DNA of 64,000 nucleotides. It comes from Acidobacteriota bacterium. GTDB taxonomy: Bacteria > Acidobacteriota > Terriglobia > Terriglobales > SCQP01. Of the stretch, positions 23,460 to 44,415 are shown one piece after another. Both the position numbers and the translations under genes were made by a program. Below the pieces are notes generated by a model that saw nothing but the letters and a program-made list of their open reading frames with translations, was not told the DNA's origin and ran no database searches. The DNA lies in contig JAKAZV010000002.1 of NCBI GenBank assembly GCA_021826505.1, positions 231 to 64,230 on the forward strand, in the 5' to 3' direction. Numbering within the stretch: position 1 is the stretch's first letter; every line of letters starts with the position of its first letter.

Positions 23460-23585
23460 AGTGATTTCCTTTGAATAGGCTTGCCTGAAATGAAACAGCC
23501 GTAAAGTTCTATATTCACGGAAAGCAGCCGGTTACGCAAGGAGACGCGGCGGAATCACTTTTTTTTGCGTCGCCATCGCGGCGTT

Positions 23586-24452: not shown

Positions 24453-24456
24453 ATTA

Positions 24457-25212
24457 TTATCCGTTTTCCGCCGCGGCCGCATCGAGAAAACAGGTAACGG
24501 CGGTACGGGCCGGATCCACCACCAGAGCCGGAAGCTCACGCGGGGAGTGACGCCGCGCCCGCAGTCTTGCGACGGCATCACGTTTTTCGCCGCCCAGAAC
24601 CAGAAACCAAACCTCGCGGGCGGCATTGAGGAGGCTCGGGGTAAAGCTCAGGCGGTCATGCGGATGATCGGCGGCGCCGCTGACGGCACGCACCCAGGCA
24701 TCATCTTCGGCATAAATATCGGTGCCGGGAAACAGCGATGCCGTATGGCCGTCGGGGCCGAGGCCAAGCAGGATGAGATCAAAGCGCGGCACCGGCGCGC
24801 CGGAGAGGCTCCGGCGAATGGTTTGGGCATACGCGCGGGCACAATCAACGGGCGGTCCCGCGACCGGAGCGGGAAAAATGCTGGCGGACGAGAACACCGG
24901 GCTGGAAAACAGGACTTCGCGGGCCATGCCGTAATTGCTGTCGGGATCGGCGTACGGCACGAGCCGCTCGTCGCTCCAGAAATACAAGGTGTTTTCACCG
25001 AACGCCGCGCGAATATCGGGCGGAGCGGCCTCCAGCTCGCGGCGCCAGCCTTGATAATACCGGCGGGCTGAAGAACCCGCGGTGAGGGCCAGCGAGAGCG
25101 GGCCGTGACCGGAATTTTGCCGGGCCCATTGCGCCAGCGATTGCCAGAACAACTGCCGGGCATGCTCGGGACTGGAGCCGCAAACCCATTGGATGGAAGG
25201 AGTGGAGGGCAT
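24457..25212 (-). CDS. pgl: 6-phosphogluconolactonase
   Basis: 251-aa ORF with LALTAGSS, WSDERLVP and LLGLGPDGHTASLFPG motifs. Confidence 0.85.
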   Translation of the reverse strand: MPSTPSIQWVCGSSPEHARQLFWQSLAQWARQNSGHGPLSLALTAGSSARRYYQGWRRELEAAPPDIRAAFGENTLYFWSDERLVPYADPDSNYGMAREVLFSSPVFSSASIFPAPVAGPPVDCARAYAQTIRRSLSGAPVPRFDLILLGLGPDGHTASLFPGTDIYAEDDAWVRAVSGAADHPHDRLSFTPSLLNAAREVWFLVLGGEKRDAVARLRARRHSPRELPALVVDPARTAVTCFLDAAAAENG

Positions 25213-25219
25213 AGAACCT

Positions 25220-25900
25220 TCAACTTCGCGGCGCGTCCGGCAACGGCGCCAGACGGAGCTGGTTGAGATCGTTTTCCAGGCGCTGGCGCAGAATTTCGAT
25301 TTCCGGCTTGCCGGCTTCGGCGGGCACCCGGTAGGGGCCTTTCCAGACCGCGGTGATGGCGCTGCCGGGGTGGGGAAGCTGAAAATGATCCCAACTGTTC
25401 AAAGTCCAGGCACGGGGCATACGAACGTGAATGGCGTAAACCGGCGCCTGGGTTGCGTGGGACAGATACAAGGCTCCGGGCTTGGCGACGCAGCACGGGC
25501 CCCGCGGGCCATCGAGGGTGATGGCCATGGAAGATCCGGCCAGGACGGCGGCGGTCATTTCCTGCATGGCGCCGGCGCCGCCGCGGGTGCTGGAGCCGCG
25601 AATGGGACGGTAGCCCATGCGGGAGACGGCGCGCGCGATGGCCTCGCCGTCGGCATGCTGGCTGATCAGCGTGCCGATGCCGCGGCCGCGGCAGTACCAG
25701 GTCATGGGCAACAGGCACTGATGCCAGCAGACGTAAATGGCGGGACCCAGTTCCGGATGGACAAAGGGCGGCGGCAGACCGTCGGGCAATTTGACCCGCA
25801 GAGTGGCGCCCCAGGCGACGATGGCGGGCGGCCCCAGATACCCGGCCAGGTTCAGCAACAGGCGCCGCGAAGGGGTTAGATCTGGCTGGAATGAAGTCAT
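25220..25900 (-). CDS. DUF374 / lysophospholipid acyltransferase-like protein
   Basis: 226-aa ORF (...ISQHADGEAIARAVSRMGYRPIRGSSTRGG...ITLDGPRGP...), typical of DUF374. Confidence 0.6.
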   Translation of the reverse strand: MTSFQPDLTPSRRLLLNLAGYLGPPAIVAWGATLRVKLPDGLPPPFVHPELGPAIYVCWHQCLLPMTWYCRGRGIGTLISQHADGEAIARAVSRMGYRPIRGSSTRGGAGAMQEMTAAVLAGSSMAITLDGPRGPCCVAKPGALYLSHATQAPVYAIHVRMPRAWTLNSWDHFQLPHPGSAITAVWKGPYRVPAEAGKPEIEILRQRLENDLNQLRLAPLPDAPRS

Positions 25901-25926
25901 GGATAAGCTAAAATCAATGATCCCGC

Positions 25927-27417
25927 ATGTTTGCCGATTCCAGTCTGGAAGATTTTCGCCGTCTGGCCCGCGAGGCGCCGCTGACGCCGGTGCTGCGCAC
26001 CATTCTGGCCGATCTGGAAACTCCCGTCACGGCCTATTTGAAGCTGACGCAGGATCAAGGCAGCGCCTACTCCTGCCTGCTGGAAAGCGTTGAGGGAGGG
26101 GAAAGCATTGGCCGCTATTCCTATATCGCGGCCGATCCCTTTCTGATTGTGCGCCAACGCCAGGGCCGGGTGGAACAAGCCCGCGGCGACCGCGGCGGAA
26201 GCCTGGACTGGAAGCCGGTCGCGGGCAGTCTGTTTGATCATCTGCGGAAACTGGTTCAGGCCCACCGCCTGCCCGAAGTCCCGGGCGCGCCGCCGTTTCT
26301 GGCCGGCGCGGTGGGCTATATGGGCTATGACATGGTACGGCAGTGGGAGCCGTTACCGGAGCATAGCAAGGACGATCTCGGCCTGGATGACGCGCGATTC
26401 ATGTTTTTTTCGCGGCAGATCATTTTTGATCATGCGCGCCGGCAGATTCACCTGATTGCCTGCGCCGATGCCAGCCAACCCGCGCGCACGGCCTGGACCT
26501 CGGCGCGGCGGCAACTGGACCGGCTGCAAGCCTGCCTGCGCAAGCCGCTGCCGGCGCTGCCGCGGAGAAGCGCAAGCGGCCGGGCGCGGGTGGTTGTGAA
26601 CCAGACGCCGGCGGAATATCAGGCCCGGGTGCGGAGGATTCAGGAATATATACGGGCGGGCGACGCGTTTCAGGTGGTGCTGTCGCAGCGCCAGGATGTG
26701 CGCACCCGGCTGCCCGCCATCCAGATTTACCGCGCCCTGCGCAGCATTAATCCCTCGCCGTATATGTTCCTGCTGCGCATGGGCGAGATGCAGGCCGTCG
26801 GAGCCTCGCCGGAAATGCTGGTGAACCTGCGGGGAGACGCCATTACGTACCGACCGATCGCCGGCTCGGCGCCACGGGGCGCCACGCCCGCCGAGGATGA
26901 ACGGCTGGCCCGCGCCATGCTGGAAGACCCCAAAGAGCGGGCCGAACATATCATGCTGGTGGATTTAGGCAGGAATGATGTGGGACGGGTGGCGCGCTAC
27001 GGCTCGGTGAAGGTGTCGCATCTGCTGGAGGTGGACAAATACTCGCATATACAGCATCTGGTGAGCACGGTCGAGGGCCGGCTGCGGCCGGGACGCGATG
27101 TATTCGATCTGCTGGCCAGCTGTTTTCCCGCCGGCACGCTCTCGGGCGCGCCCAAGGTGCGGGCCATGCAGATTATTGACGAACTCGAACCGACGCGGCG
27201 CGGGCTGTATGCCGGCTCGGTGATGTATCTGGACTTCTCAGGTAACCTGAATTCATGCATCGCGATCCGCACGGCGGTGCTGCAAAACGGCTGGGCCCAT
27301 CTGCAGGCGGGCGCCGGGATTGTGGCCGATTCGCGTCCGGCGCGCGAGCATCAGGAATGCCTGAACAAGATGCAGGCGGTGGTGAGGGCCCTGGAACTCG
27401 CCGGGCAGGGGCTTTGA
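25927..27417 (+). CDS. trpE: Anthranilate synthase component I
   Basis: 496-aa chorismate-binding enzyme (LLESVEGGE..., ...PSPYMF..., GAGIVADS...) followed immediately by a glutamine amidotransferase gene. Confidence 0.88.
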   Translation: MFADSSLEDFRRLAREAPLTPVLRTILADLETPVTAYLKLTQDQGSAYSCLLESVEGGESIGRYSYIAADPFLIVRQRQGRVEQARGDRGGSLDWKPVAGSLFDHLRKLVQAHRLPEVPGAPPFLAGAVGYMGYDMVRQWEPLPEHSKDDLGLDDARFMFFSRQIIFDHARRQIHLIACADASQPARTAWTSARRQLDRLQACLRKPLPALPRRSASGRARVVVNQTPAEYQARVRRIQEYIRAGDAFQVVLSQRQDVRTRLPAIQIYRALRSINPSPYMFLLRMGEMQAVGASPEMLVNLRGDAITYRPIAGSAPRGATPAEDERLARAMLEDPKERAEHIMLVDLGRNDVGRVARYGSVKVSHLLEVDKYSHIQHLVSTVEGRLRPGRDVFDLLASCFPAGTLSGAPKVRAMQIIDELEPTRRGLYAGSVMYLDFSGNLNSCIAIRTAVLQNGWAHLQAGAGIVADSRPAREHQECLNKMQAVVRALELAGQGL

Positions 27418-27420
27418 AGC

Positions 27421-28100
<680 letters not shown>

Positions 28101-28104
<4 letters not shown>

Positions 28105-30605
28105 CGATGCCTGAACGCGAATATCAACCGGAACAGTTTGAACAACGGTGGGCCGAACGCTGGGCCCGGGCGGAGGCATCCGCGCCGGAGGAGACAAAGA
28201 AGAAATATTACGTCCTGGAGATGCTGCCCTATCCCTCGGGGGCGCTGCATATGGGACACGTGCGCAATTACGCCATCGGCGACGCAGTGGCGCGGCAGCT
28301 GCGCATGCGCGGCTTTGACGTGCTGCACCCGATGGGCTGGGACGCGTTTGGCCTGCCCGCCGAAAATGCCGCCATTAAAAACCGGCGGCATCCCCGCGAA
28401 TGGACGCTGGCGAATATCGCGCACATGCGCGAACAGGCGCGGCGTTTTGGCTTCAGCTATGACTGGGGGCGAGAAGTCACTACCTGCCTGCCCGAATATT
28501 ACCGCTGGAACCAATGGCTGTTTTTGAAGTTTTATGAGCGCGGCTGGGCCTATCGCAAGCGCGGCTGGGTGAACTGGTGTCCGCAGTGCGCCACGGTGCT
28601 GGCCAACGAACAGGTGGCCGGAGGAGTCTGCTGGCGCCATGAAGATACGCCGGTCGAGTCGCGCGAGCTGGAACAGTGGTACTTCCGTATTACAGAATTT
28701 GCGGGCGAGCTCTTGCGGGATATTGAAAAGCTGAGCGGATGGCCGGAGCGCGTGCGGGCGATGCAGCGCAACTGGATCGGCGAAAGCCACGGCGCGGAAG
28801 TTGAATTTCAACTGCGGCCGCCAGGGCAGGGAAGCAAGGGTGCGGCGGCGGTTCATGCCGCGCCCGCCTCACTCAAGGTATTTACCACCCGGATTGACAC
28901 GATTTTCGGAGTCTCGGCGCTGGTGCTGGCGCCCCGGCATCCGGCACTGACTGGGATGCTCGCGGCTCCGGAATTGGCGCGCGCCCATGCACTGCAGCCG
29001 GAACGCGGAGCTGCTCCCCTGGGCGTGGAAGCGGAAAAAGAAGGGTTTTTTACCGGCTGGCATGCCGTCAATCCATTTACCGGAAAGCCGGTGCCGGTCT
29101 GGACCGCGAATTTCGTGCTCATGGGCTATGGCACCGGGGTGGTGATGGCCGTGCCGGCGCACGATGAGCGCGATTTTGATTTCTGCCGGAAATATGGCCT
29201 GCCGATTCCCGTGGTGATCCGGCCCCGCGAGAAGGATGCGGAAGCGCCCGCGGATGCCGCCTTTACCGATGAAGGCGTGCTAGCTGATTCGGGCGAGTTC
29301 AGCGGCCTGGACAGCGTGGAAGCACGCAAGCGCATGACGGCCTGGATCGAGTCGCGCCAGCAGGGCCGGGCAACCATCACGTATCGCTTGCAGGATTGGG
29401 GTGTATCCCGTCAACGGTATTGGGGTACGCCGATTCCGTTTGTCTATTGCCAGGGATGCGGATTGGTTCCGGTTCCGGAAGATCAACTGCCGGTGCGGCT
29501 GCCCGAGAATGTGCCGATTTCGGAGCAGGGCGTGGCCAACCTGGCCGGCATTCCGGAGTTTGTCGAAACCACCTGTCCGAAATGCCAAAAGCCGGCCCGG
29601 CGCGAGACCGACACCATGGACACGTTCGTGGATTCGTCCTGGTATTTTTACCGGTATCTCAGCCCGCATTGCGACCGCGCGCCGTTTGATGCCGCAGAAG
29701 CGCGGCGCTGGATGCCGGTGGACCAATATATCGGCGGCATCGAGCATGCCATTCTGCATTTGATTTATGCCCGCTTTTTCACCAAGGCGATGCGCGACCT
29801 CGGCCTGTGCGAAGTACATGAGCCGTTTCAACGACTGTTCACGCAGGGCATGATTACCCGGCATGGCGCCAAAATGTCGAAATCGAAGGGCAATGTGGTG
29901 GACCCGGCCGATCTGATCGCTCGTTATGGGGCCGATGCCACGCGCGCCTATGTTCTTTTTGCCGCCCCGCCGGAGCGGGATTTCGACTGGAATGATCAAG
30001 GAGTGGAAGGCTTATACCGTTTTCTGGGGCGGGTGTACCGGCTGGCGCTGCGGCATGACATGGACGCCGCGGGTCTGCCTGCGGATTTTGAGCCGCAGAA
30101 ATCAGAAGGGACGCTGCTGCGCAAGACGCACCAGACCCTGGCGCGCATCAGCCAGGAATTTGAAAGCCGCTGGCATTTCAACACCTGCCTGGCGGCGATC
30201 ATGGAATTAGTGAATGTATTTTACGAACTGGAGCCGGAAGCCGGGCGCGGCATCCGCGGCGAGGCCTGGCGGGAATGCCTGCGCCTGCTGATGCTGATGC
30301 TGGCGCCGTTTGCGCCTTTTGTCTGCGCCGAAATCTGGCAGGCGTGGGGACTTGAGGGAACGCCCGCGACCCAGGCCTGGCCGCGGCCGAACTCGACCTG
30401 GACGGCGGAAGATGAAATCGAGATTGTGATACAAATCAACGGCAAAGTACGGGCGCACCTGCGCGTGCCGGCCGGCAGTGACGCGGCCGAGCTGGAACGC
30501 CGGGCGCTTGTTTTGCCCGCGGTGCAGACCGCGCTGGCCGGCCGGACTCCGGCGAAGGTGATTGCCGTTGCCGGCCGGCTGGTCAATATCGTGATTCGGC
30601 CCTGA
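28101..30605 (+). CDS. leuS: Leucine--tRNA ligase
   Basis: 834-aa class-I aaRS with the HMGH signature ([15 protein letters not shown]) and the KMSKS motif. Confidence 0.93.
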
Positions 30606-32975: not shown

Positions 32976-33446
32976 ATGACATGCCGAAAGTTTCGCCTCG
33001 CAATCGAAAGCCGGAATGAAGCCAGCGGCGCAGCGCGCCTGCCCGCCGCGCTGCAGGCGCATGCCGATTCCTGCGCAGCATGCCGCTCGGCTTACCGCGA
33101 CTGGCTGATCAGCCGGTCCTGGCTGCAGTCGCTGGAGAGCCGGCCGGAGCGCGATGAGAACGCGGCGGAGCATTTCTGGCTGCAGCTGCAAGCCCGCCTG
33201 CGCCAGCCGCCGGAGCCGGAATGGAAAAGCTGGCTGCGGGTTCCGGTCTTTACCCGGGACCTGGTGATGGCCGCCGCCGCCTTATTGCTGCTGACCGGCG
33301 TGTTTACCTACAATGTCAAACGGCTGGAAACGCCGAGCATGGGCGAGGCGATTGCCCTGGATGCGCCGCATGTGCATGCCCGCCATCCCTATCTGGATCA
33401 TCAGCGCAAACCGGAAGACGTTCTGCTGAGTGTGATGACGCGATGA
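32976..33446 (+). CDS. Anti-sigma factor (zf-HC2 type, single TM)
   Basis: 156-aa ORF directly after the ECF sigma gene. H-x3-C-x2-C motif (HADSCAAC) and one TM helix (VMAAAALLLLTGVFTY). Confidence 0.7.
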   Translation: MTCRKFRLAIESRNEASGAARLPAALQAHADSCAACRSAYRDWLISRSWLQSLESRPERDENAAEHFWLQLQARLRQPPEPEWKSWLRVPVFTRDLVMAAAALLLLTGVFTYNVKRLETPSMGEAIALDAPHVHARHPYLDHQRKPEDVLLSVMTR

Positions 33447-33880
33447 AAACACGCAACATCATTTATCTGCTCGTGATTTTCGCCTGCGGGCTGCTGATCG
33501 GCGCCACTTTGATGGATTTAGCCGAACACAACTGGCTGCACAAGATTCCGCGTTCTGAAGTGGATATTCGCCAGCACCGGCGGATTGCCCGCGAAATGGC
33601 CAAGCGGCTGGATTTGAATCCGGCGCAGCAGGCGGCCGTGGACCGGATTCTGCGCCACACCGTGCACGCCTATCTGCTGATTGAAAAGCAGGTTTCACCG
33701 CAGTTTGCGGCGGTGCGGGAGCGGGGACGGCAGCAAATCCGCGCCATACTGACCCCGGCGCAACGGATGAAGTTCGACCAGATGGTGGCCCAGATTGACC
33801 AGCGGGAACCCTCGATCGAACGCTCGCCGGCGATTCCGCAGACCATTCCAATGCAGCCGGCCAGGAATGTAAGCCACTGA
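33443..33880 (+). CDS. Periplasmic Spy/CpxP-like (LTXXQ-motif) protein
   Basis: 145 aa from the ATG at 33443 (ATGA overlap with the anti-sigma stop). N-terminal TM/signal segment. LNPAQQ and LTPAQR motifs. Confidence 0.6.
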   Translation: MKTRNIIYLLVIFACGLLIGATLMDLAEHNWLHKIPRSEVDIRQHRRIAREMAKRLDLNPAQQAAVDRILRHTVHAYLLIEKQVSPQFAAVRERGRQQIRAILTPAQRMKFDQMVAQIDQREPSIERSPAIPQTIPMQPARNVSH

Positions 33881-33927: not shown

Positions 33928-33955
33928 ATGTCCGATAATATGTATTATGTTAACT
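33928..33955. other. dif: Candidate chromosome dimer resolution site (dif) for XerC/XerD
   Basis: ATGTCCGATAA-TATGTA-TTATGTTAACT. The right arm matches the E. coli XerD arm TTATGTTAAAT at 10/11 positions. ATAA/TTAT flank a 6-bp centre. Lies in the gap between convergent transcription units and overlaps the RND gene stop codon. Confidence 0.6.
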
Positions 33956-36900
33956 TTTAGCCGGGGCCGGGATTGGGGGGCTCACGCGGCGGTGTTTCAG
34001 CGCCCACAACCGCAAACGGTCCATGTACAGGTAGATCACCGGGGTGGTAAATAAAGTCAGCAACTGCGAAACCAGCAGACCGCCAACGATGGTCACCCCC
34101 AGCGGCTGGCGAAATTCCGATCCCATGCCGGTGCCCACCGCCAGCGGCAAGGCTCCGAACATGGCGGCCAGCGTGGTCATCAGGATGGGCCGGAAGCGCA
34201 GCACGGCGGCTTCATAAATGGCTTCATCGGGTGAGCGCTGCTTTTTGCGCTCGGCATCGAGGGCGAAATCAATCATGATGATGGCGTTTTTCTTTACAAT
34301 CCCGATCAACAGCAAAATGCCGATCAGGGCGATCACCGTGAGCTGGAGATGAAACACCAGCAGCGCCAGCAAAGCTCCCACGCCGGCCGAAGGCAGCGTG
34401 GACAATATGGTGATGGGGTGAATATAGCTTTCGTAAAGGATGCCGAGGACAAGGTAAACCGCGATCAGGGCGGCGGCGATCAGATAAGGCTCATTGGCCA
34501 GCGAAACCTGAAATTGCTGGGCGGTACCGGCAAAGCTGGCTTTTAATCCCGGCGGCGGATGAAGACGCGCCTCGGCGGCGGTGACGGCCGTGACCGCGGC
34601 GCCCAGCGAGGATTTACGGGCGAGATTGAACGATAAAGTCACCGCCGGCAATTGCCCCTGATGATTGACCTGGAGGGCGGTATTGCTGGGGACGGCCCGC
34701 ACCAACTCCTTCAGCGGGATCATCGTTCCGGAACTCGCCGGCACATAAAGCTCGCTGAGCACGCCGGGATCGCGGCGGAAAGATCGCGGCACGGTCAGCA
34801 CGACATGATACTGATTCAGGCCGGTGTAGATGGTGGAGACTTCGGCCTGGCCGAAGGCGTCATACAGGGTGCGATCCACCGACTGCATGGGCACACCCAG
34901 CCGGGCGGCGAGAGACCGGTTCACGATCAGGCGCAGCTCCAGGCCGGAATATTGCTGATCGGTATTCACATCGCGGAGCATGGGCAGCTTGCGCAGGGCG
35001 GCGAGTATGCGCGGTGACCACTGCCGAAGCTCCGTGAGGTTGTCATCTTCCAGCGTGTACTGATATTGCGAACCGGTGAGGCGCCCGCCAATGTTGATGT
35101 CCTGAATCGGCTGCATGAACAGGCGCACGCCGGGAATGCGGGTCAGGCGCGGCCGCATCTGGGCGATAAAGGCTGCCGAGCTGATCTTGCGCTGGCTGAG
35201 CGGCTTGAGCTGGATAAACATCCGGCCGATGTTCAGTCCCCCGCCCCCGCCGGTAAACGAAGCAACGGTTTTCACGGCGGGGTTTTTCAGCACGATATCC
35301 ACCAATTGCTTCTGCTTGCGGGCCATGGCGTGAAAGGAAATATCCTGCTCCGCCTGGACCATGCCCATCACGCGGCCGGTATCTTCCTGGGGGAAAAATC
35401 CTTTGGGAACGGCGATGTAAAGATATACGGTGAGAATGGCGGTGGCGATGGTGACGGCCAGGGTCAGCGGCGCGTGGCGCAGGACCCAGCGCAACGCTGC
35501 GGCATACGCGTTGCGCAGCCGTTCGAAGCCGCTTTCCGCGGCCCGGTACAGCCAGTTATGCCGGCGCCCTTTTTCCTGCTGCAGAAAATGGGCGCAGAGC
35601 ATGGGCGTGGTGGTCAGCGACAGCCAGAGGGAAACCAGAATGGCCACGCTCAGGGTGACGGCGAATTCGCGAAACAGACGCCCGACGATGCCGCGCATCA
35701 GCAGCACGGGAATGAAGACCGCGATCAGCGAAGTGCTCATCGAGAGCACGGTAAAGCCGATTTCACGGGCGCCGTGCAAGGCGGCCTGAAAAGGCGTATC
35801 GCCGGCGTCCAGATAACGGTCAATATTTTCGATGACCACGATGGCGTCATCCACCACGAAGCCAGTGGAAATGGTCAGCGCCATGAGCGATAAATTGTCG
35901 AGGCTGTAGCCCAGCAGGTACATGAAGGCCAGCGTGCCCATCACCGAAAGCGGCAGCGCGATGCTGGGTATGGCAGTGGCGCGGGGATTGCGGAGGAAAA
36001 AGAATATCACCAGGACCACCAGCACGAGGGCGACCAGCAGCGTCCATTCGACGTCGCGGACGGATGAACGGATCTCAAGCGAACGGTCGGAAAAGACGCG
36101 CATGTGAATGGCGGCGGGAATGGCGGCCTGCAGGCTGGGCAGCAGCGCCTTGATGCGATCCACCATGCGCACGATGTTGGCGCCCGGCTGCTGCACGATG
36201 AAGACAATCACGGCGTGATGGCCGTTGGCCAACCCGGCGACCTCGGTGTTGAGGACGCTGTCGCGCACCGTGCCGATATCCTTCAGCAGCACCGGCGAAC
36301 CGTTGCGATACGAGACCACCAGGCCGCGATACTGGGCGGCCCGCACCTGCTGATCGTTGGCGGAGATGGTATAGCTATGGCGGCCGTTCCAGAGCATGCC
36401 CTTCGGCAGATTCACATTGGCCGCCGAGAGCGCCGCCTGCACCTGGAGCAGGCTCAGGCCGTAGCTGGCCAGCCGGGCCGGATTCACGGTGACGCGGACG
36501 GCGGGCTGGGCGGCGCCGGAGACGAAGACTTCGCCCACGTCCGGAACCTGGGCGATTTTTTGCGCCAGCACGCTGTCGGCGGCGTCATAAATCTGCGGCA
36601 ACGCGAGAGTCGGCGAGCTCAGCACCAGCAGCAGAGCGGGCGCATTAGCGGGGTTGACCTCGCGGTAGGTGGGCTTCATCGGCAGATCGGCGGGCAGATT
36701 GGCGGTGGCGGCGTTGATGGCGGCCTGGACGTCGCGGGCGGCGCCGTTAATATTGCGGCTGAGGGCGAACTGGAGGGTGATATTGGTGCTGCCGAGCGAA
36801 CTGCTGGAGGTCATTTCGGTGAGCCCGGCGATGCGGCCGAACTGACGTTCCAGCGGGGCGGCGACCGAGGAGGCCATGACCTCGGGGCTGGCGCCGGGCA

Positions 36901-37051
36901 GGCCCGCGCCCACCGAGATGGTGGGAAACTCGACCCGCGGCAACGGCGCCACCGGCAGGAGCCAGTAACCGCCGATGCCGGCCAGCAGCAAAGCCAGGCT
37001 GAGCAGCGCGGTGGCGACCGGACGCCGGATAAAGATTTCACTGAAGCTCAC
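33950..37051 (-). CDS. Efflux RND transporter permease (MdtC-like)
   Basis: 1033-aa 12-TM AcrB/HAE1-type ORF. Third gene of the MFP-RND-RND operon. Confidence 0.88.
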   Translation of the reverse strand: MSFSEIFIRRPVATALLSLALLLAGIGGYWLLPVAPLPRVEFPTISVGAGLPGASPEVMASSVAAPLERQFGRIAGLTEMTSSSSLGSTNITLQFALSRNINGAARDVQAAINAATANLPADLPMKPTYREVNPANAPALLLVLSSPTLALPQIYDAADSVLAQKIAQVPDVGEVFVSGAAQPAVRVTVNPARLASYGLSLLQVQAALSAANVNLPKGMLWNGRHSYTISANDQQVRAAQYRGLVVSYRNGSPVLLKDIGTVRDSVLNTEVAGLANGHHAVIVFIVQQPGANIVRMVDRIKALLPSLQAAIPAAIHMRVFSDRSLEIRSSVRDVEWTLLVALVLVVLVIFFFLRNPRATAIPSIALPLSVMGTLAFMYLLGYSLDNLSLMALTISTGFVVDDAIVVIENIDRYLDAGDTPFQAALHGAREIGFTVLSMSTSLIAVFIPVLLMRGIVGRLFREFAVTLSVAILVSLWLSLTTTPMLCAHFLQQEKGRRHNWLYRAAESGFERLRNAYAAALRWVLRHAPLTLAVTIATAILTVYLYIAVPKGFFPQEDTGRVMGMVQAEQDISFHAMARKQKQLVDIVLKNPAVKTVASFTGGGGGLNIGRMFIQLKPLSQRKISSAAFIAQMRPRLTRIPGVRLFMQPIQDINIGGRLTGSQYQYTLEDDNLTELRQWSPRILAALRKLPMLRDVNTDQQYSGLELRLIVNRSLAARLGVPMQSVDRTLYDAFGQAEVSTIYTGLNQYHVVLTVPRSFRRDPGVLSELYVPASSGTMIPLKELVRAVPSNTALQVNHQGQLPAVTLSFNLARKSSLGAAVTAVTAAEARLHPPPGLKASFAGTAQQFQVSLANEPYLIAAALIAVYLVLGILYESYIHPITILSTLPSAGVGALLALLVFHLQLTVIALIGILLLIGIVKKNAIIMIDFALDAERKKQRSPDEAIYEAAVLRFRPILMTTLAAMFGALPLAVGTGMGSEFRQPLGVTIVGGLLVSQLLTLFTTPVIYLYMDRLRLWALKHRRVSPPIPAPAKS

Positions 37052-37114
37052 AGGCTTAACTCAACGCGAGGCGGGAGTTTTGCGCATGGCGATTCCCTGC
37101 CCCGACTGCGATTT

Positions 37115-40100
37115 TCAACTCTCACTGGGCGCCGGCTCGCCGGCGGGCACGTCGAAGCGCCGCGCCAGGCGGTCAAAGGCCAGATAGACCACGGGGGTGG
37201 TGAACAGGGTCAGCACCTGCGACACCATCAAGCCGCCGATGATGGTGATGCCCAGCGGGTGCCGCAGCTCCGAACCGGTGCCGCGGCCGAGCGCCAAAGG
37301 CAATGCGCCCAGCATGGCCGCCATGGTGGTCATCAGAATCGGCCGGAAGCGCAGCACGGCGGCCTGGAAAATGGCCTCGGGCGCGGGTTTTTTTTCATCC
37401 CGCTCGGCCTGCAGGGCGAAATCAATCATCATAATCGCGTTTTTTTGCACGATGCCGATCAGCAGAATCAGGCCGATGATGGCGACAATATCGAGATCGA
37501 GGTGAAACAGCATCAGCGCCAGCAAAGCGCCCACCCCGGCCGAGGGCAGAGTGGAAAGAATCGTGATGGGATGGATAAAGCTCTCGTACAGAATGCCCAG
37601 CACGATATAGACGGTGATGATGGCGGCCAGAATCAGCCAGGGCTCGTTGGCGAGGGAGTTAATCAGCGCCTGCGCTGTGCCTTCGAAGTGGCCGCGCAGG
37701 CTGAAAGGCAGATGCAAGCCGGCGATGGCGGATTGAATTTGCGTAATCGCCTGGCCCAGCGAGGCGCCGCGGGCCAGATTGAACGACAAGGTCACGGCGG
37801 GAAACTCGCCATAGTGACTGATGACCAGGGGCTGGGTTTCGAGCCGGACCCGGGCAAACGCGGCCAGCGGCACCTGGGCTCCGCCGGCCGCGCCCACGTA
37901 GAGCGACCCCAGGGCGCCGGGATTCCGGCTGAAGCGATGGGCATTTTCCAGAATCACGTGGTACTGATTATCCTGGGTGAAAATGGTCGAGACCTGGCGC
38001 TGTCCATAAGCGTCGTAGAGGGTATTGTCAATGGCGGCGGGTGTGATGCCCAGCCGGGCGGCGGTGGCGCGGTCAAAGTCAATGCGGGCGGAGAGGCCGC
38101 CGGGCTGCTCATCGGTCGCCACGTCGCGCAGGGCGGGAAGCCGGCGCAGCCGCGCCAGCACGCGGGGCGCGTAGCGGGCCAACTCGGCGGCATTGGCGTC
38201 ATCGAGGGCATACTGATACAAAGTGCGGCTGACCTGATCGTTGACGGTAAGCTCCTGCACCGGCTGCATGAATAACTGAATGCCGGGCACGCGCGCCAGC
38301 CGCGGGCGCAACTGGCGGATGATCTGCATGGCCGAAAGCGAACGCTGGGCGCGCGGCTTTAAATTAATCTGAATGCGGCCGCTGTTGAGGGTGGTATTGA
38401 CGCCGTCAATGCCGATAAATGACGAAACATTGGCCACCGCCGGATTGCGGAGCAGCACTTTGACCAGCGCCTGCTGGCGCTTCGCCATCTGGGGAAACGA
38501 AACCTGGGGCGGCGCCTGGGAAATCCCCAGTATTTCGCCGGTATCCTGCTGCGGGAAAAACCCTTTGGGAATGATCCAGAACAACCAGAGCGTGAGCCCC
38601 AGCGTGGCCACGGTGACGACCAGCGTGGCGGGCTGATGGCGCAAGACCCGGCGCAGCAGGGCGGCGTAACCGTCAACGCATTTTTGCCACCAGCGTTCGG
38701 TGAGGTGATAGAAGCGCCCGCGGCTTACCTGTTCGGGCGGGCGCAGCAGGCGCGCCGCCAGCATGGGCGTCAGGGTCAGGGATATGAGCGCGGAAAAAAC
38801 GATAGTGGCGGCCAGGGTGAGGGCAAATTCGCGAAACAGGCGGCCGACGATGTCGCCCATGAACAAAAGCGGAATGAGAACCGCGATGAGCGAGACGGTG
38901 AGCGAAATAATCGTGAAGCCGATCTGTTCGGCGCCGCGCAGGGCGGCCTGCAGCGGGGGTTCGCCGGCTTCGAGAAAGCGGGCGATATTTTCGGTCATGA
39001 CAATGGCGTCGTCGGCCACGAAACCGGTCGAGATGGTCAGCGCCATGAGCGAAAGATTATCGAGGCTGAAGCCGAGCAGATACATGACGCCAAAGGCGGC
39101 CACGATGGAAAGCGGCACGGCCACGCCCGGGATCAAGGTGCCGGGAATGGTCCGCAGGAACAGGAAAATCACGAGCACGACCAGCGCGATGGTCAGCAGG
39201 AGCTCCATTTGCACATCGCGCACCGAGGCGCGGATGGTGTTGGTGCGGTCGGAGACGATGGCGATTTTGAGCTGCGGCGGAATTGCGGCCCGCAACTGCG
39301 GCAGCAGCGCCTTGACGCGGGCGACCACGGCCAGCACGTTGGCATTGGGCTGGCGCTCGACATTGAGCAGCACCGCCGGCTGGGCATCCTGCCAGGCCGC
39401 GAGCTGGGAATTTTCCACGCTGTTGACGACCGTGGCCACGCTGTCCAGACGCACCGGCGCGCCGTTCCGATAGGCCACCACCAGGCGCCGGTACTGGCGG
39501 GCGCTGGTGAGCTGATCATTGGTCGAGATCGCGTAATTTTGCCGCGGGCCGTCGAGATTTCCCTTGGGCTGATCAATGTTGGCGGCATCAATGGCCGTGC
39601 GCAGGTTTTCGAGGCTCAGCCCGTAGCTGGCCATCTGGCCGGGATTGGCCTGTATCCGCACCGCCGGGCGCTGACCACCGCTGATGGTGACCAGGCCCAC
39701 GCCGGAAAGCTGCGATATTTTCTGCGCCAGCAGCGTATCGGCGAAATTTTCCACCTGAGACAATGGCAGCCGCGACGAAGTCAGCGCCAACGTCAGCACC
39801 GGGGCATCGGCGGGATTGGTTTTGCTGTAGATGGGCGGCGAGGGCAGATCGGCGGGCAGATAGCTGCTGGCGGCGTTAATGGCAGCCTGCACCTCCTGCT
39901 CGGCGACATCAATGTTCTGGCTGAGATCGAACTGGAGCAGGATGACGGAGCTGCTATAGGAACTGGTCGAAGTCATCTGGCTCAGGCCGGGAATTTCTCC
40001 AAACTGCCGCTCGAGCGGCGTGGTCACCGCCGATTCCATGACCCGGGGGCCAGCGCCGGGGTAGGAAGTGACAATCTGGATGGTGGGATACTCAACCTCG

Positions 40101-40213
40101 GGCAGCGCCGAGACGGGAAGCTGGCGATAGGCCGTAAAGCCCACCAGCAGCAGCCCGAGCATGATCAGCGAGGTGGCGACCGGCCGCAGGATAAAAATGC
40201 GCGAGGGACTCAT
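37115..40213 (-). CDS. Efflux RND transporter permease (MdtB-like)
   Basis: 1032-aa AcrB/HAE1-type ORF, paralogous to the downstream permease. Confidence 0.88.
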   Translation of the reverse strand: MSPSRIFILRPVATSLIMLGLLLVGFTAYRQLPVSALPEVEYPTIQIVTSYPGAGPRVMESAVTTPLERQFGEIPGLSQMTSTSSYSSSVILLQFDLSQNIDVAEQEVQAAINAASSYLPADLPSPPIYSKTNPADAPVLTLALTSSRLPLSQVENFADTLLAQKISQLSGVGLVTISGGQRPAVRIQANPGQMASYGLSLENLRTAIDAANIDQPKGNLDGPRQNYAISTNDQLTSARQYRRLVVAYRNGAPVRLDSVATVVNSVENSQLAAWQDAQPAVLLNVERQPNANVLAVVARVKALLPQLRAAIPPQLKIAIVSDRTNTIRASVRDVQMELLLTIALVVLVIFLFLRTIPGTLIPGVAVPLSIVAAFGVMYLLGFSLDNLSLMALTISTGFVADDAIVMTENIARFLEAGEPPLQAALRGAEQIGFTIISLTVSLIAVLIPLLFMGDIVGRLFREFALTLAATIVFSALISLTLTPMLAARLLRPPEQVSRGRFYHLTERWWQKCVDGYAALLRRVLRHQPATLVVTVATLGLTLWLFWIIPKGFFPQQDTGEILGISQAPPQVSFPQMAKRQQALVKVLLRNPAVANVSSFIGIDGVNTTLNSGRIQINLKPRAQRSLSAMQIIRQLRPRLARVPGIQLFMQPVQELTVNDQVSRTLYQYALDDANAAELARYAPRVLARLRRLPALRDVATDEQPGGLSARIDFDRATAARLGITPAAIDNTLYDAYGQRQVSTIFTQDNQYHVILENAHRFSRNPGALGSLYVGAAGGAQVPLAAFARVRLETQPLVISHYGEFPAVTLSFNLARGASLGQAITQIQSAIAGLHLPFSLRGHFEGTAQALINSLANEPWLILAAIITVYIVLGILYESFIHPITILSTLPSAGVGALLALMLFHLDLDIVAIIGLILLIGIVQKNAIMMIDFALQAERDEKKPAPEAIFQAAVLRFRPILMTTMAAMLGALPLALGRGTGSELRHPLGITIIGGLMVSQVLTLFTTPVVYLAFDRLARRFDVPAGEPAPSES

Positions 40214-40245
40214 GTTGCCTTGGAAAAGCCGGTTACGGGCCGCAA

Positions 40246-41391
40246 TCAGGGCCGCCGCAGCGTGACTTTCTGACCGGGGCGGAGCTCATTTTGCCCGTCG
40301 GTCACGACCGCTTCGCCCGCCGACAGCCCCTTTTGGATTACCGTTCGCAGGCCGGTCACGTAGCCCGTCCGCACGGGGCTCATGCGCACGGTATGATTGG
40401 GCTCAACCACGAACACGAAGGTGCGGCTGGAATTGCGCTCGATCGCGGCCGAGGGCACGACCAGCACCTGGCGCAAGACACGCAGGCGAAGATGAACATT
40501 GACAAATTCATTGGGCCAGAGCTTATTGCCGCGGTTGGAGAAGATGGCTTTGAGCTGGATGGTTCCGGTGGTGGGGTCAATCTGATTGCTCATCGCCAGC
40601 AGACGGCCCTGCGCCAAACGGGTTTTGTTGTCGCTGCCATAAGCCGTCGCTGGCAATGGGCCCCGCGCCATGGCCTGCCGGATGGGCGTGACCTGATTTT
40701 CGGGCAGCGTGAAGACAGCGACGATGGGCTGGACCTGGGTGATGATGACGATGCCCGTGGTGTCGGTGGTTTGCACAATATTGCCCAAATCCACCTGCCG
40801 CAGTCCGGTGATGCCGCTGATCGGAGCGGTGATGTGGGTGTAGGCGAGATTCAACTGAGCGGCTTTCAAGGCCGCCCGGTCAAGGGCCACCGTTCCGGTA
40901 AATTGACCCACCAGCGCCTGTTGTAAATTCAATTGCTGCAGGGCCAGAATTTTCTGCCGGTACATGGCCTGATCGCGTTGCAGGTCAATTTTGTCGTCGG
41001 CCCACTGCGCCTGGTCGCGCTGCAGCGCGGCCTGGGCCTGACGGACAGCGATCTGATAGGGGCGCGGGTCCACCACGGCCAGCAACTGTCCTTTATGAAC
41101 AAACTGTCCCTGATGAAAGACGATGCGCACCAGCGGCCCATTCACCTGCGTGCGCACAACGGCGGTATTGGCGGCCGCGACGGTGCCCAACCCCTGGACG
41201 ACGAAAGGCACATCCTGCCGGATGACCGGAGCGGTGAGCACCGAAACCGGGCCCATCATGCCGTGGGAGGGTTTGGCGGGAGCATCGGAGGTTCGCGAAC
41301 AAGCCGCGATCGTCAGGGTTAAAAATGTTAACAATAGACTGGCGGACCGATGCCGGCCAGAAAATTGGAATAAGCGTGTGTTCATATGCAA
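40246..41391 (-). CDS. Efflux RND transporter periplasmic adaptor (membrane fusion protein, MdtA-like)
   Basis: 381-aa ORF with a lipoprotein-like signal (LTIAAC) and an HlyD/MFP coiled-coil and barrel pattern. First gene of the operon. Confidence 0.85.
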   Translation of the reverse strand: MHMNTRLFQFSGRHRSASLLLTFLTLTIAACSRTSDAPAKPSHGMMGPVSVLTAPVIRQDVPFVVQGLGTVAAANTAVVRTQVNGPLVRIVFHQGQFVHKGQLLAVVDPRPYQIAVRQAQAALQRDQAQWADDKIDLQRDQAMYRQKILALQQLNLQQALVGQFTGTVALDRAALKAAQLNLAYTHITAPISGITGLRQVDLGNIVQTTDTTGIVIITQVQPIVAVFTLPENQVTPIRQAMARGPLPATAYGSDNKTRLAQGRLLAMSNQIDPTTGTIQLKAIFSNRGNKLWPNEFVNVHLRLRVLRQVLVVPSAAIERNSSRTFVFVVEPNHTVRMSPVRTGYVTGLRTVIQKGLSAGEAVVTDGQNELRPGQKVTLRRP

Positions 41392-41477
41392 AACAAACTA
41401 CCGGCAAGCGGCTTGCACCGGCCTATTTGCCTATACGCCGAAAAAGACTCCGCGGCATCAGGGGACGGGGCGCGAAG

Positions 41478-42755
41478 CTACCAGTAGCGGGCCCGGCTTT
41501 CCGGAGTTTCCGCGGCTTTGGCTACCACGGTGATTCCGCTTTCGTCCACGTGATAGCCGCGGGCGCGGTCGGATTCGGGATCAAAGCCGACGGTGCTGTG
41601 GGCGGCGATATGGACATTTTTATCGAGAATGGCGCGGCGGACGCGGGCGCCGGGCCCGATATAGACGTTATCCATCAGAATGGATGCTTCCACCTCGGAG
41701 CGGGTTTCGAGCACCACATTGCGGCTCAGGACCGATTCCCGCACCCGGCCCCCGGCCAGAAGGCAGCCGCCCATGACCAGTGAATCAATGGCTTCGCCCT
41801 TGCCGCGTTCGCCGTCATACATAAACTTGGAGGGCGGCGTGTTGAAATTGGAGCTCATGATCGGCCATGCCCAGTTGTAGAGATTCAGCTCCGAATCCGG
41901 TTTCCGCAGATCCATGTTGGCCTCGTAATAGGCGCGGATGGTGCCGACATCGCGCCAGTAGGGCCGTTCGACCTCATAGCCGCCGTGCACGGGGATGCGA
42001 TTGCTGGAAAAGTCATAGGCATAAACATCCATGTGCTCGACCATATACGGAAAGATGTTGCGGCCGAAGTCATGGGCGCCGCCCTGCAAGGCATCATGCA
42101 GCAACACTTCCACCAGCACGCGGGTATCGAAAATATAATTTCCCATCGACGCCAGCGACCAGTCCTCGCGCCCGGGGATGACCGGCGCGGCGGCGGGGTC
42201 GGGCTTTTCCACGAAGTTGCGGATGCGGAAGCTGGCGTCAATATCCAGCACGCCGAAGGGCTTGACTTCACGGCGCTCGATCGGCAGGGAGGCCACGGTG
42301 GCGGCGGCGCCGTGCTCGAAATGATAGTCCACCATCTGCCCGATATTCATTTTATAAACGTGGTCGGCGCCGAAGACCGCGACGGCATCGGGATTGAACT
42401 GTTCAATCAGATTGAGATTCTGGTAAATCGCATCGGCGGTGCCGCGGTACCAGACGTCGCCGACCTGCATCTGGGCCGGAACCACGGTGGCAAAGGCATC
42501 GCGGGCGCCGACGACGAACGACCAGGCGCGTTGAATATGGCTGATCAGCGACTGCGCCTTGTACTGGGTCAGCACGTAGATGGAATCAATGCCGGAATTG
42601 ATCAGATTGCTGAGAACAAAATCAATGACCCGGTAGCGGCCGCCAAACGGGACAGCGGGCTTGGAGCGGTGTTTGGTGAGCGGGTACAGGCGCTCGCCTT
42701 TACCGCCCGCCAGGACCAGGGCCAAGATGCGTTGCCGATTTTTGCCTGCGGCCAT
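41478..42755 (-). CDS. glgC: Glucose-1-phosphate adenylyltransferase
   Basis: 425-aa ORF (LAGGKGERLYPLTKHRSKPAVPFGG...) with a left-handed beta-helix C-terminus. Confidence 0.9.
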   Translation of the reverse strand: MAAGKNRQRILALVLAGGKGERLYPLTKHRSKPAVPFGGRYRVIDFVLSNLINSGIDSIYVLTQYKAQSLISHIQRAWSFVVGARDAFATVVPAQMQVGDVWYRGTADAIYQNLNLIEQFNPDAVAVFGADHVYKMNIGQMVDYHFEHGAAATVASLPIERREVKPFGVLDIDASFRIRNFVEKPDPAAAPVIPGREDWSLASMGNYIFDTRVLVEVLLHDALQGGAHDFGRNIFPYMVEHMDVYAYDFSSNRIPVHGGYEVERPYWRDVGTIRAYYEANMDLRKPDSELNLYNWAWPIMSSNFNTPPSKFMYDGERGKGEAIDSLVMGGCLLAGGRVRESVLSRNVVLETRSEVEASILMDNVYIGPGARVRRAILDKNVHIAAHSTVGFDPESDRARGYHVDESGITVVAKAAETPESRARYW

Positions 42756-42804
42756 AACCCCAACCGTCCTCTCTGCCTGCCTTGCTGCCCGTTCTATCTG
42801 AATC

Positions 42805-43467
42805 CTATGCCAGAAGCCCGGCTTCGCGCCGGCCGGGATTCAGGGAATCGTGAACCATATTTAAAAATAGCTGATGCAGGCGGGGATTGGTGGTTAATTC
42901 CGGATGAAAAGTTGCCGCCAGCTGGCGGCCCTGCCGCACCAGCACCGGCTCCTGATCAAGCCGGGCCAGCACTTCGACCTCTGGCCCGCAGGTGAGGATG
43001 CGGGGAGCGCGAATAAAGATCATCTCCGGCGCCGGCGCGGCTGACGGCGGCAAAAGCTTTTCCCGCCATTGGCCCGAGGCCGCGAAACTGTCAATCTGGC
43101 GGCCATAGGCATTGCGCTCAATTTCGATATCGAGTGTGCCCAGACTTTCCTGCCGGGGATGGATTACCCGCATGGCCTGCAGGATCGCGCCGGCACAAGT
43201 CCCAAATACACAGTGGCTTGCGGCATATTCTCTCAATTGATCTGTCATGTTTTGCCGACGCAGTAAATGCAACTGGGTCGTGCTTTCGCCGCCGGGCAGA
43301 ATCAGGCCATCCAACCCCTGCAAATCTTCGCCCTGGCGCACCCAGGCATAATGATCGCCCGGACTGGGCGCCTGGCCGGCCCTGGGATCAAGGCGCAAGC
43401 CGAGCCGCTCAAGCATGCGGGCATGAGCGGCAAAATCGCCCTGCAGGGCCAGAATTCCAATGCGCAT
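42805..43467 (-). CDS. pdxT: Pyridoxal 5'-phosphate synthase glutaminase subunit
   Basis: MRIGILALQGDF... start at 43467 (the ORF extends 7 codons further upstream). GTCAG active-site region. Sits adjacent to pdxS. Confidence 0.85.
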   Translation of the reverse strand: MRIGILALQGDFAAHARMLERLGLRLDPRAGQAPSPGDHYAWVRQGEDLQGLDGLILPGGESTTQLHLLRRQNMTDQLREYAASHCVFGTCAGAILQAMRVIHPRQESLGTLDIEIERNAYGRQIDSFAASGQWREKLLPPSAAPAPEMIFIRAPRILTCGPEVEVLARLDQEPVLVRQGRQLAATFHPELTTNPRLHQLFLNMVHDSLNPGRREAGLLA

Positions 43468-43524
43468 AAAAGTTGACGCCGACGGCAAGAAATTGGTTTC
43501 GGATAGGCGTCGTTGGGTTGTGAT

Positions 43525-44415
43525 TTACCATCCGCGGGACTGCAATTGTTCTTCCGGTTTGAGGGCGGCGGCTTCGGTGCCGCGCATGGCCTCGCCCAGA
43601 TCCTCACAGCACTCGAGCAGTACATCCGGATTCTGATAATGGGTGGTGGCGCGCACAATGGCATGGGCGCGAGCCGCGGGATCATCGGACTTAAAGATGC
43701 CGGAACCGACGAAGACGGCTTCGGCTCCGAGCTGCATGACCAGGGCGGCGTCGGCGGGAGTGGCAATGCCGCCGGCCGAGAAATTCGGCACGGGCAACTT
43801 CCCTGCCCGCGCGACCTGCTGCACCAGCGGCAGCGGCGCCTGCAATTGCTTGGCGTGGCCGTAGAGTTCTTCGGCGGGCAGCACCGACAACTGGCGGATT
43901 TCAGCCATGATGGCGCGCATATGGCGGACGGCATGAACGACATCGCCGGTGCCGGCCTCGCCCTTGGTGCGAATCATGGCCGCGCCTTCGGCAATGCGGC
44001 GCAGGGCTTCGCCCAGGTTGCGGGCGCCGCAGACGAAGGGCACCTTGAAGGCGTGCTTATCCACGTGATAGGCTTCGTCGGCCGGGGTCAGGACTTCGCT
44101 TTCGTCAATGTAATCCACGCCCAGGGCCTCGAGAATACGGGCTTCCGTAAAGTGGCCGATGCGGCATTTGGCCATGACGGGAATGGTTACGGCCCGCATG
44201 ATTTCGCGGATTTTGCGGATCGAGGCCATGCGAGCCACGCCGCCCTCGCGGCGGATGTCGGCGGGCACGCGTTCGAGGGCCATGACCGCACAGGCGCCAG
44301 ACTGTTCGGCGATGCGGGCCTGCTCGGCGTCGGTGACATCCATGATGACGCCGCCCTTCAGCATTTCAGCCAGCCCGGTTTTAAGTTGAAATTCCTGATT
44401 TTCCATGACGAACAC
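43525..44415 (-). CDS. pdxS: Pyridoxal 5'-phosphate synthase lyase subunit
   Basis: 296-aa highly conserved PdxS (...[14 protein letters not shown]...[23 protein letters not shown]...). Confidence 0.93.

Follow-up and report, generated by a model that had tools for sequence, protein, structure and literature searches.

Does the gap between two convergent transcription units in an acidobacterial contig hold the site at which dimers of this chromosome are resolved? The DNA that we analyzed, called the window here, is a stretch of 64,000 nucleotides from an Acidobacteriota bacterium (contig JAKAZV010000002.1 of assembly GCA_021826505.1, positions 231 to 64,230 of the forward strand). The original prediction, which was made from the letters of this stretch, placed a strong dif-like XerC/XerD recombination site, and with it a probable replication terminus, in a 69-bp gap between convergent units. 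We found the gap at 33881-33949, as predicted. The site itself, read directly from the plus strand at positions 33928..33955, is the 28-bp sequence ATGTCCGATAATATGTATTATGTTAACT, which is made up of an 11-bp XerC-type arm (ATGTCCGATAA, 33928-33938), a 6-bp central hexamer (TATGTA, 33939-33944), and an 11-bp XerD-type arm (TTATGTTAACT, 33945-33955). We conclude that this 28-mer is very probably the dif site of the chromosome, of the classical XerCD type, which resolves chromosome dimers at division. This reading rests on the way in which the site is built, on its being unique in the window and conserved, on the FtsK orienting polar sequences (KOPS) that converge on it, on its position in the region of skew reversal, and on the recombination-type junctions seen at it in close relatives.

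The 28-mer has the core architecture of a dif site, with two 11-bp arms that form an imperfect inverted repeat around a 6-bp center. Its G+C content is 25%, compared to 62% for the window, and 16 of its nucleotides are palindromic, a value close to the published mean of 16.3 +/- 3.0 (Carnoy & Roten 2009, PMC2731167). It is also nearly wholly noncoding, with 22 of its 28 bp in the intergenic gap and the last 6 bp formed by the stop codon and final codon of the gene for an RND efflux permease; the overlap of the XerD-type arm with this stop codon had been predicted, and it extends one codon further. Thus, the low G+C content, the noncoding location, the palindromic nucleotides, and the conserved XerD arm by which Carnoy and Roten described dif sites are all present here. 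The 28-mer matches the dif sites of Escherichia coli and Bacillus subtilis at 19/28 and 22/28 positions, respectively, and TTATGTTAACT matches the E. coli XerD arm at 10 of 11. These values, for which we checked the reference sites in Kono et al. 2011 (Table S1, PMC3025954), are the same on recomputation as those first quoted. E. coli dif has the same architecture of 11 + 6 + 11 bp, is likewise low in G+C and partly palindromic, and differs in the outer XerC arm and in the hexamer (TGTATA there, TATGTA here). A further figure in the original prediction, a match at 27 of 28 positions to an IUPAC consensus for proteobacterial dif, is right as a count, with one mismatch at position 15, but the consensus string itself is unconfirmed, as it was not found in Carnoy & Roten 2009 (PMC2731167). 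We therefore relied on the verified reference sites instead.

At a threshold of three or fewer mismatches, the sole dif-like match within the 64-kb window is 33928-33955 itself, and the next best 28-mers have 7 mismatches. Dinucleotide-preserving shuffles of the window gave a match in 0/100 cases, and the analytic expectation for a match with at most one mismatch is 8e-8 per window, or ~8e-6 per 6-Mb genome.

The closest published counterparts of the site are acidobacterial. The predicted dif of Koribacter versatilis Ellin345 is ATGTCCGATAACAGATATTATGTTAACT (Kono et al. 2011, Table S1, PMC3025954), and both arms of the site in the window are identical to it (22/22), so that the central hexamer alone differs. 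The arms match those of the dif predicted for Solibacter usitatus Ellin6076 in the same table at 9/11 and 10/11 positions. The center is CAGATA or CAGGTA in those genomes, in contrast to TATGTA here. A comparison with other acidobacterial dif predictions, which had been proposed as a check, speaks for the site. We also scanned one genome per species for the pattern TCCGATAA-N6-TTATGTTAACT and obtained at least 120 loci. Among the loci listed, there is one site per contig with a single exception, and the phyla represented are many, including Bacillota, Thermodesulfobacteriota, Omnitrophota, and Armatimonadota; at least 22 of the loci are from Acidobacteriota. Several metagenome-assembled genomes (MAGs) of Terriglobales and Acidobacteriaceae carry the same arms as the site here, in the form ATGTCCGATAA-CAG[A/G]TA-TTATGTTAACT, and the presence of these arms in Thermodesulfobacteriota, Bacillota, and other phyla shows that they are not confined to Acidobacteria. 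We found no flanking genes common to the window and the sampled genome loci with the same arms. The site is thus a new instance of a well-known feature, with arms already published for a cultured acidobacterium in 2011. Since dif, XerCD, and FtsK are textbook knowledge and dif was predicted in cultured Acidobacteria in that year, current understanding is unchanged by it.

Conservation of the exact sequence was seen at two distances. When JGI metagenomes were searched for exact copies of the 28-mer, three contigs were obtained (L129, L130, and L131), of which L129 represents a syntenic relative that is 82.6% identical to the window over 1.45 kb. In L129 the 28-mer is unchanged (28/28), while many substitutions and an indel are found in the 45-bp spacer that runs from the stop codon of the left neighboring gene, which encodes an LTXXQ-motif protein, to the site. 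The other two contigs come from unrelated organisms with 37-46% G+C and have only 32 bp around the site in common with the window. The 28-mer is also kept at 28/28 positions in relatives that are ~97% identical to the window (L263-L268, L270, L271, and L273). Judged from these alignments, the site appears to be conserved under purifying selection across relatives. The claim that the sequence is strongly dif-like is thus sustained by the arms common with Koribacter and the conservation in L129, as well as by the KOPS convergence and insertion junctions described below. As a separate observation, exact copies of the 28-mer are present in a marine lineage of low G+C content (34-39%; L130, L141, L148, and L221), whose contigs are 95-97% identical to each other and have nothing else in common with the window.

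A different origin for such a sequence would be a chance AT-rich imperfect palindrome or a bidirectional terminator unrelated to Xer. The position of the site between convergent genes would suit a terminator, and in the predicted RNA fold the site is bracketed by a GC-rich inverted repeat, GGCGCCCGGCT (~33914-33924) and AGCCGGGGCC (33959-33968). However, the chance expectation is ~1e-7, no terminator-like call falls at this position, and shuffled sequences fold equally well (z = -0.75). Moreover, a terminator does not explain the 28/28 conservation, the identity of the arms in distant phyla, the KOPS convergence, or the Xer-type junctions. We rejected the terminator or hairpin reading on these grounds, and we give the chance or terminator origin a negligible probability. 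The right arm of the inverted repeat, AGCCGGGGCC, belongs to the RND gene, of which it forms the coding 3' end. A search of Rfam found no RNA family at threshold within the window.

The E. coli KOPS consensus is GGGNAGGG, and for the region around E. coli dif a KOPS skew of 1 is reported by Nolivos et al. 2012 (PMC3384302). The window contains nine copies of GGGNAGGG on the plus strand, at 4760, 6620, 8392, 14121, 16610, 21826, 24362, 27403, and 28824 (span 4760..28831), all of which lie to the left of the site and point to it. Four copies on the minus strand, at 37095, 43801, 47127, and 49567 (span 37095..49574), lie to its right and point back to it. The counts on the plus and minus strands are therefore 9:0 on the left and 0:4 on the right for the window only (Fisher p = 1.4e-3), and the interval in which the polarity switches, 28824-37095, brackets the site. 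The window is ~99.9% identical to several assemblies, among them DAHVCM010000001.1 (203,905 bp, GCA_027314065.1), which is not an identical record and stops 550 bp past the point where the window ends on the right. We extended it on the left by 9.9 kb from L005 and on the right by either 5.5 kb from L003, which is at the same strain level, or 9.5 kb from L252, which is 97% identical. The 9.9 kb to the left holds two further plus-strand copies, and with the extensions the counts become 11:0 on the left and 0:5 on the right (Fisher p = 2.3e-4). KOPS are thus fully polarized toward the site from both sides, as they are in the E. coli dif region, at a density of ~1 per 5 kb here versus 1 per 12 kb in E. 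coli. This polarity is independent of gene orientation, since the plus-strand copies on the left lie in both minus- and plus-strand genes; the minus-strand copies on the right lie in minus-strand genes.

The polarity of GGGNAGGG also stands out against that of other words. Among 1170 testable NNNnNNNN families it takes 3rd place, and among 42 composition-matched permutations it comes 1st; the pooled permutations gave 230:14 on the left and 80:65 on the right. For positions 33956-50000, Markov models of order 1-4 predict 1.2-2.7 copies on the plus strand and 0.4-1.0 on the minus strand, compared to the 0 and 4 copies observed. Around the at least 120 scanned loci, the plus/minus counts of GGGNAGGG are 8/5 on the left and 1/14 on the right in Acidobacteriota (Fisher p = 0.003), 28/4 and 2/30 in other high-GC genomes (p = 1e-11), and 46/4 and 3/55 in low-GC genomes, including those of the Bacillota type (p = 5e-22). 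This convergence supports the view that the class of site is dif and that GGGNAGGG acts as a polar guide motif there. Because the polarity is found in many phyla, the polar distribution of this KOPS word of the proteobacterial type around dif reaches far past the Proteobacteria, and the data add to the evidence that FtsK guidance by GGGNAGGG-type motifs converges on this type of dif well outside that phylum.

By analogy with the established XerCD, dif, and FtsK system, from which Xer binding, catalysis, and FtsK dependence are inferred here, one recombinase would bind each 11-bp arm and strands would be exchanged where the arms adjoin the 6-bp center. Copies of GGGNAGGG would steer an FtsK-type translocase from both sides to the site, where it would join the two dif copies of a dimer at the septum and activate recombination.

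Is the site also the point at which replication ends? In the original prediction, the maximum of the cumulative GC skew was expected at the site itself. This expectation was not borne out in the window and its extensions, in which the maximum lies at 54,832 within a plateau at 48,854-56,993 that marks the sign change of strand asymmetry, 15-23 kb to the right of dif. On the plus strand, GC skew is +0.06 to +0.17 from the left extension to ~46 kb, approximately zero at 46-54 kb, and -0.01 to -0.065 at 54-73.5 kb, the last interval including the extension from the 97% identical relative. The skew at four-fold degenerate sites (GC4 skew) falls across the window with no reversal at the site, from 0.31 at 1-25.9 kb to 0.18 at 25.9-33.9 kb, 0.17 at 33.9-45 kb, 0.135 at 45-49.5 kb, and 0.02 beyond 49.5 kb (plus strand in each case). 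G-rich octamers matched in composition behave similarly, with at least 86% on the plus strand up to 33.9 kb, 70-100% at 34-46 kb, and most on the minus strand beyond 50 kb; over 34-50 kb, they favor the plus strand by 49:18. Skewed k-mers trained on the left flank gave no flip at 33.9 kb in a test that is confounded by gene orientation. Among the scanned loci listed, the skew within +/-4 kb flips at 48 of 72 sampled sites (p = 3e-4), and no such local flip was found around 19 Acidobacteriota sites. We did not use skew to place dif, since it does not flip at 33.9 kb and is flat around these 19 acidobacterial dif sites.

A skew maximum away from the site raises a second alternative, in which the 28-mer is a Xer-binding site but not the terminus dif, and both the true dif and the terminus are located at the skew maximum or past it, at 49-57 kb or further right. 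A cumulative GC-skew peak at 54.8 kb rather than at 33.9 kb favors this alternative, and a weak dif-like sequence, TGACCCGATAAATCCTTTTATATAAACT, is found on the minus strand at 56716-56743, at the edge of the GC-skew plateau. This sequence, which lies upstream of a gene for a 352-aa protein, has 7 mismatches, with the inner part of the XerC arm (CCGATAA) intact and 9/11 positions matched in the XerD arm. In contrast to the site at 33.9 kb, it is destroyed in the ~97% identical relatives, in which the intergenic identity of the region is 71.6% and indels are present. Since it is not conserved at this distance, TGACCCGATAAATCCTTTTATATAAACT is probably fortuitous AT-rich promoter DNA, and a search of the window for a better dif candidate at the skew maximum yielded only this weak, inverted, and unconserved sequence. 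In addition, the four KOPS at 37-50 kb point away from 56716 and toward 33.9 kb, the 19 Acidobacteriota sites likewise show no local flip, and an offset of 15-23 kb is ordinary by published measures (Carnoy & Roten 2009, PMC2731167; Kono 2011, PMC3025954). We consider it very improbable that the true dif lies at or beyond the skew maximum.

The published distances put the offset in perspective. Across 161 chromosomes of proteobacteria, dif lies a median of 7.3 kb from the skew maximum, with a third quartile of 21.4 kb and a maximum of 200 kb (Carnoy & Roten 2009, PMC2731167). The 1-sigma range of dif offsets is 0-1.39% of genome length, and the skew indices of three Acidobacteria are very weak (Kono et al. 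2011, PMC3025954). The offset here is near the published third quartile, where the maximum is a local one within the window and its extensions. Given these distances, the 1-sigma range, the weak skew of Acidobacteria, and the flat skew at the 19 Acidobacteriota sites, the offset does not contradict the assignment of dif. Thus, of the predicted replication terminus, the region is upheld and the exact point is not: the locus at 33.9 kb is the terminus region and not the exact terminus point. The site marks the segregational terminus, on which KOPS converge, while the average fork meeting point, judged by GC skew, appears to be 15-23 kb to its right, and this displacement of the GC-skew switch from the site sets the locus apart from E. 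coli. Forks may usually meet ~15-20 kb to the right of dif, or the offset may reflect history or gene content. Between 33956 and 50000, the polarity of segregation (KOPS, 0:4) and the mutational polarity (skew) switch 12-23 kb apart. We also tried an inversion between 33.9 and 56.7 kb as a way to reconcile KOPS with skew and rejected it, because KOPS conflict with base composition whichever way round the segment is placed; the sequence at 56.7 kb is, in addition, unconserved.

Sister strains provide a natural record of recombination at the site. We found their contigs through the 90% protein clusters of the RND and extracytoplasmic function (ECF) sigma factor proteins of the window, and their DNA is ~96.8% identical to it. 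Four configurations were seen. In the first, found in the window and in L265, the LTXXQ gene, a 45-bp spacer, dif, and the RND gene follow one another. In the second (L263 and L264), a hicB/hicA segment of 752 bp replaces the 45-bp spacer between the LTXXQ gene and an identical dif, which is again followed by the RND gene. The third configuration is seen on two contigs each from GCA_027389675.1 (L268 and L262) and ERZ27237515 (L267 and L261). On the LTXXQ side, the order is LTXXQ, hicBA, a perfect 28-mer, a gene for a 137-aa protein together with ParB_N and HTH_ParB genes, and the contig end. The contigs on the RND side start in foreign DNA, with genes for a 723-aa protein and an SLT-domain protein, and continue through a hybrid site into the RND gene. 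This hybrid, GCGTCCGGTAA-CAC-TATGTA-TTATGTTAACT, keeps the XerD arm and the hexamer and has an XerC-like arm that matches at 8/11 positions and is shifted by 3 bp. At least 5 kb of foreign DNA therefore sits exactly at the site, with dif and the hybrid in direct orientation, and L260, L266, and L273 show the same. The two flanking copies have the XerD arm and central hexamer in common and diverge on the XerC-arm side of the center. Every contig breaks inside the inserted element, so that the element is only partly assembled; in the assembled part no integrase is visible, Pfam and PHROG gave no match for the 723-aa protein, and no relative of this protein or of the ParB-like protein was found in IMG/VR.

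The arrangement of a dif and a dif-like hybrid around foreign DNA is the known architecture of Xer-integrated elements such as CTX-phi, VGJ-phi, and elements of the gonococcal genetic island (GGI) type. The third configuration is the architecture that would be expected of an integrative mobile element exploiting Xer (IMEX), and the insertion junctions are indirect evidence that the site has been recombined by Xer proteins in nature. As with CTX-phi, VGJ-phi, the Neisseria GGI, and the pdif modules of Acinetobacter, foreign DNA without a visible integrase lies at dif in relatives of the window strain. Unlike these systems, the window itself has an empty site and no element. To our knowledge, no Xer-exploiting element has been described for this group.

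The fourth configuration is a junction in L269 (8299-8326; GCA_027389655.1), ATGTCCGATAA-TATGTA-TTACTGACCCG, in which an intact XerC arm and center are followed by other sequence in place of the XerD arm. About 130 bp past this junction, L269 matches, in inverted orientation, the foreign DNA of L260-L262 at its RND-proximal end. The junction could represent a second insertion, an inversion event, or an assembly chimera. In L263 (7126-7709), L264, and L266-L271 (7715-8310), the 752-bp hicA/hicB-like toxin-antitoxin cassette directly adjoins the XerC arm on its outer side. Since the cassette takes the place of the 45-bp spacer, the flank of dif next to the XerC arm is a hotspot of strain variation.

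These insertions also open a third alternative, namely that the 28-mer in the window is itself an attachment site or junction of a Xer-exploiting element and that the functional dif lies elsewhere. Such elements do target the locus in relatives, the hicAB cassette abuts the XerC arm in some of them, and IMG/VR contains at least 120 contigs classed as viral (L132-L251) that carry sites with the same arms; among the 120 matches listed, the center is TGTATA in 62 and the arm is ATGTCCGATAA in 57. In the window, however, the perfect 28-mer lies directly between core genes, with the operon of the ECF sigma factor and LTXXQ genes on one side and the RND operon followed by housekeeping genes on the other. 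The window has no second site in direct orientation, the next best sequences having 7 mismatches, and the 56716 sequence is inverted, unconserved in the 97% identical relatives, and separated from the site by housekeeping genes. KOPS converge on the site at 33.9 kb, and the perfect copy in the relatives that bear insertions is the same 28-mer. We therefore judge it very unlikely that the site is an element junction and prefer to read it as the chromosomal dif, which in the window strain is unoccupied.

Taken together, the offset and the insertions suggest a combined picture, which we hold tentatively and at slightly less than even chances, in which the dif and GGGNAGGG center is uncoupled by 15-23 kb from the compositional reversal and the site serves in natural populations as an active landing pad for Xer-exploiting elements that lack an integrase. 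If this picture is true, replication would not normally end at dif, and the landing-pad elements would include the element of at least 5 kb with ParB_N and SLT-domain genes and the dif-adjacent hicAB cassette.

A candidate cognate recombinase is encoded 29 kb from the site, as predicted. This gene (62498..63472, minus strand) encodes a XerD-like tyrosine recombinase of 324 aa with the Pfam domains Phage_integrase and Phage_int_SAM_1. The protein passes the NCBIfam NF001399 cutoff, aligns over its full length to E. coli XerD (PDB 1A0P; E = 1.5e-58), and has the catalytic-region motifs and the C-terminal HHPRA tail in common with it. It scores far higher against XerD and XerC than against XerS, XerH, and XerA. 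A XerD homologue with this tail is thus encoded here, as it is in the E. coli system. Kono et al. 2011 (PMC3025954) note a tendency of xerC to be located close to dif and of xerD to be located close to the origin. In the two right extensions (L003 and L252), 1-6 kb past the xer gene, dapF is found ~2.5 kb away, with lpxD and a DUF6982 gene between them on the other strand, a neighborhood that loosely recalls the dapF-xerC arrangement of E. coli.

Several points weigh against the dif reading. The 28-mer is single-copy within the window and the ~84 kb covered from this organism and its close relatives, and this scope limits the uniqueness argument. The GGGNAGGG counts are small (16 motifs), and when the alternative extension from the 97% identical relative is used, a plus-strand copy appears at 65.7 kb and the counts become 11:0 on the left and 1:5 on the right (p = 1e-3). 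Recognition of GGGNAGGG by the FtsK of this organism is presumed from the polarity statistics. GC skew, GC4 skew, and octamer polarity all flip ~12-23 kb to the right of the site. With 303 bits for XerD and 290 bits for XerC, the recombinase falls short of both equivalog cutoffs, the window open reading frames scanned yielded no second Xer gene, and no ftsK is present among the annotated window genes. Finally, gene-strand bias lends no support, with genes to the left of 25.9 kb mostly on the minus strand. Compared to the E. coli system, the second recombinase and FtsK are not visible in the window.

The absence of a strand-bias argument can be seen from the gene layout. Immediately to the left of the site is the LTXXQ-motif gene (Spy/CpxP-like; 33443..33880, plus strand), which has a weak Pfam LTXXQ match and encodes a protein of 145 aa in public assemblies; it is the last gene of the ECF-sigma operon, and its stop codon lies 47 bp before the site. 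To the right is the RND efflux permease gene (MdtB/MdtC-like; 33950..37051, minus strand), with a Pfam ACR_tran match at E = 0 and an MdtC/MdtB-like NCBIfam match. Annotation confirmed the seven plus-strand genes that had been noted at 25.9-33.9 kb (trpE, trpG, leuS, guaA, the ECF sigma factor gene, a gene for a 156-aa protein, and the LTXXQ-family gene) and the seven minus-strand genes at 33.95-45.0 kb (two RND genes, a membrane fusion protein gene, an NTP-transferase gene, pdxT, pdxS, and a DUF4149 gene), as well as the minus-strand location of the later genes ftsZ, pnp, accA, dnaE, cca, and xer. The use of this convergent orientation as a sign of the terminus did not hold, since the genes at 0.1-25.7 kb, which include the nuo operon, a MacB-type permease gene, and an inositol-phosphate synthase gene, are almost all on the minus strand. 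The strand switch at the site is therefore only local and not on the scale of a replichore, and it is no evidence of a terminus. The context is chromosomal, as shown by nuo, trpEG, leuS, guaA, ftsZ, pnp, dnaE, and accA.

Comparison with other Xer systems places the site in the classical group. The B. subtilis system of dif, CodV-RipX, and SpoIIIE with its recognition sequences (SRS) has the same site architecture, with the 22/28 identity given above, and likewise has G-rich polar motifs that converge on the site. Its orienting motif is GAGAAGGG, which occurs only twice here, whereas it is the proteobacterial-type GGGNAGGG that is polarized in the window. The plasmid sites cer and psi and the difSL/XerS, difH/XerH, and archaeal dif/XerA systems are likewise Xer-family cores with two arms and a short center. 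The cer and psi sites are plasmid-borne and need ~180-200 bp of accessory sequence. In contrast, the site here lies in a chromosomal housekeeping context and has an unconserved 45-bp spacer beside it. Compared to the single-recombinase systems, the site fits the classical XerCD dif pattern instead.

For a fragmentary MAG such as this one, the site provides a fixed landmark of the segregational terminus that can serve in ordering contigs, orienting replichores, and estimating growth rates from peak-to-trough ratios. The data also reveal insertions of the Xer type that arose naturally at this site in sister strains. We regard these insertions, the 15-23 kb separation of KOPS and dif from the skew switch, and the cross-phylum polarity of GGGNAGGG as the most interesting side points of the analysis.

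Two minor observations were made along the way. Four contigs of the 'Rickettsiales' MAG CAZEIY01 (L035, L043, L080, and L125; 2.7-3.8 kb, ~60% G+C) each carry AGGTCCGATAAGAGGCGTTATGTTAACT inside a common stretch of 50-57 bp, and L125 has the site at both ends in inverted orientation, an arrangement that calls to mind pdif-module-like cassettes or a repeat at which assemblies break. Within the window, an 83-bp direct repeat lies in the nuo region between nuoL and nuoK (5423-5735), and the window differs there in length by 230 bp from GCA_027314065.1.

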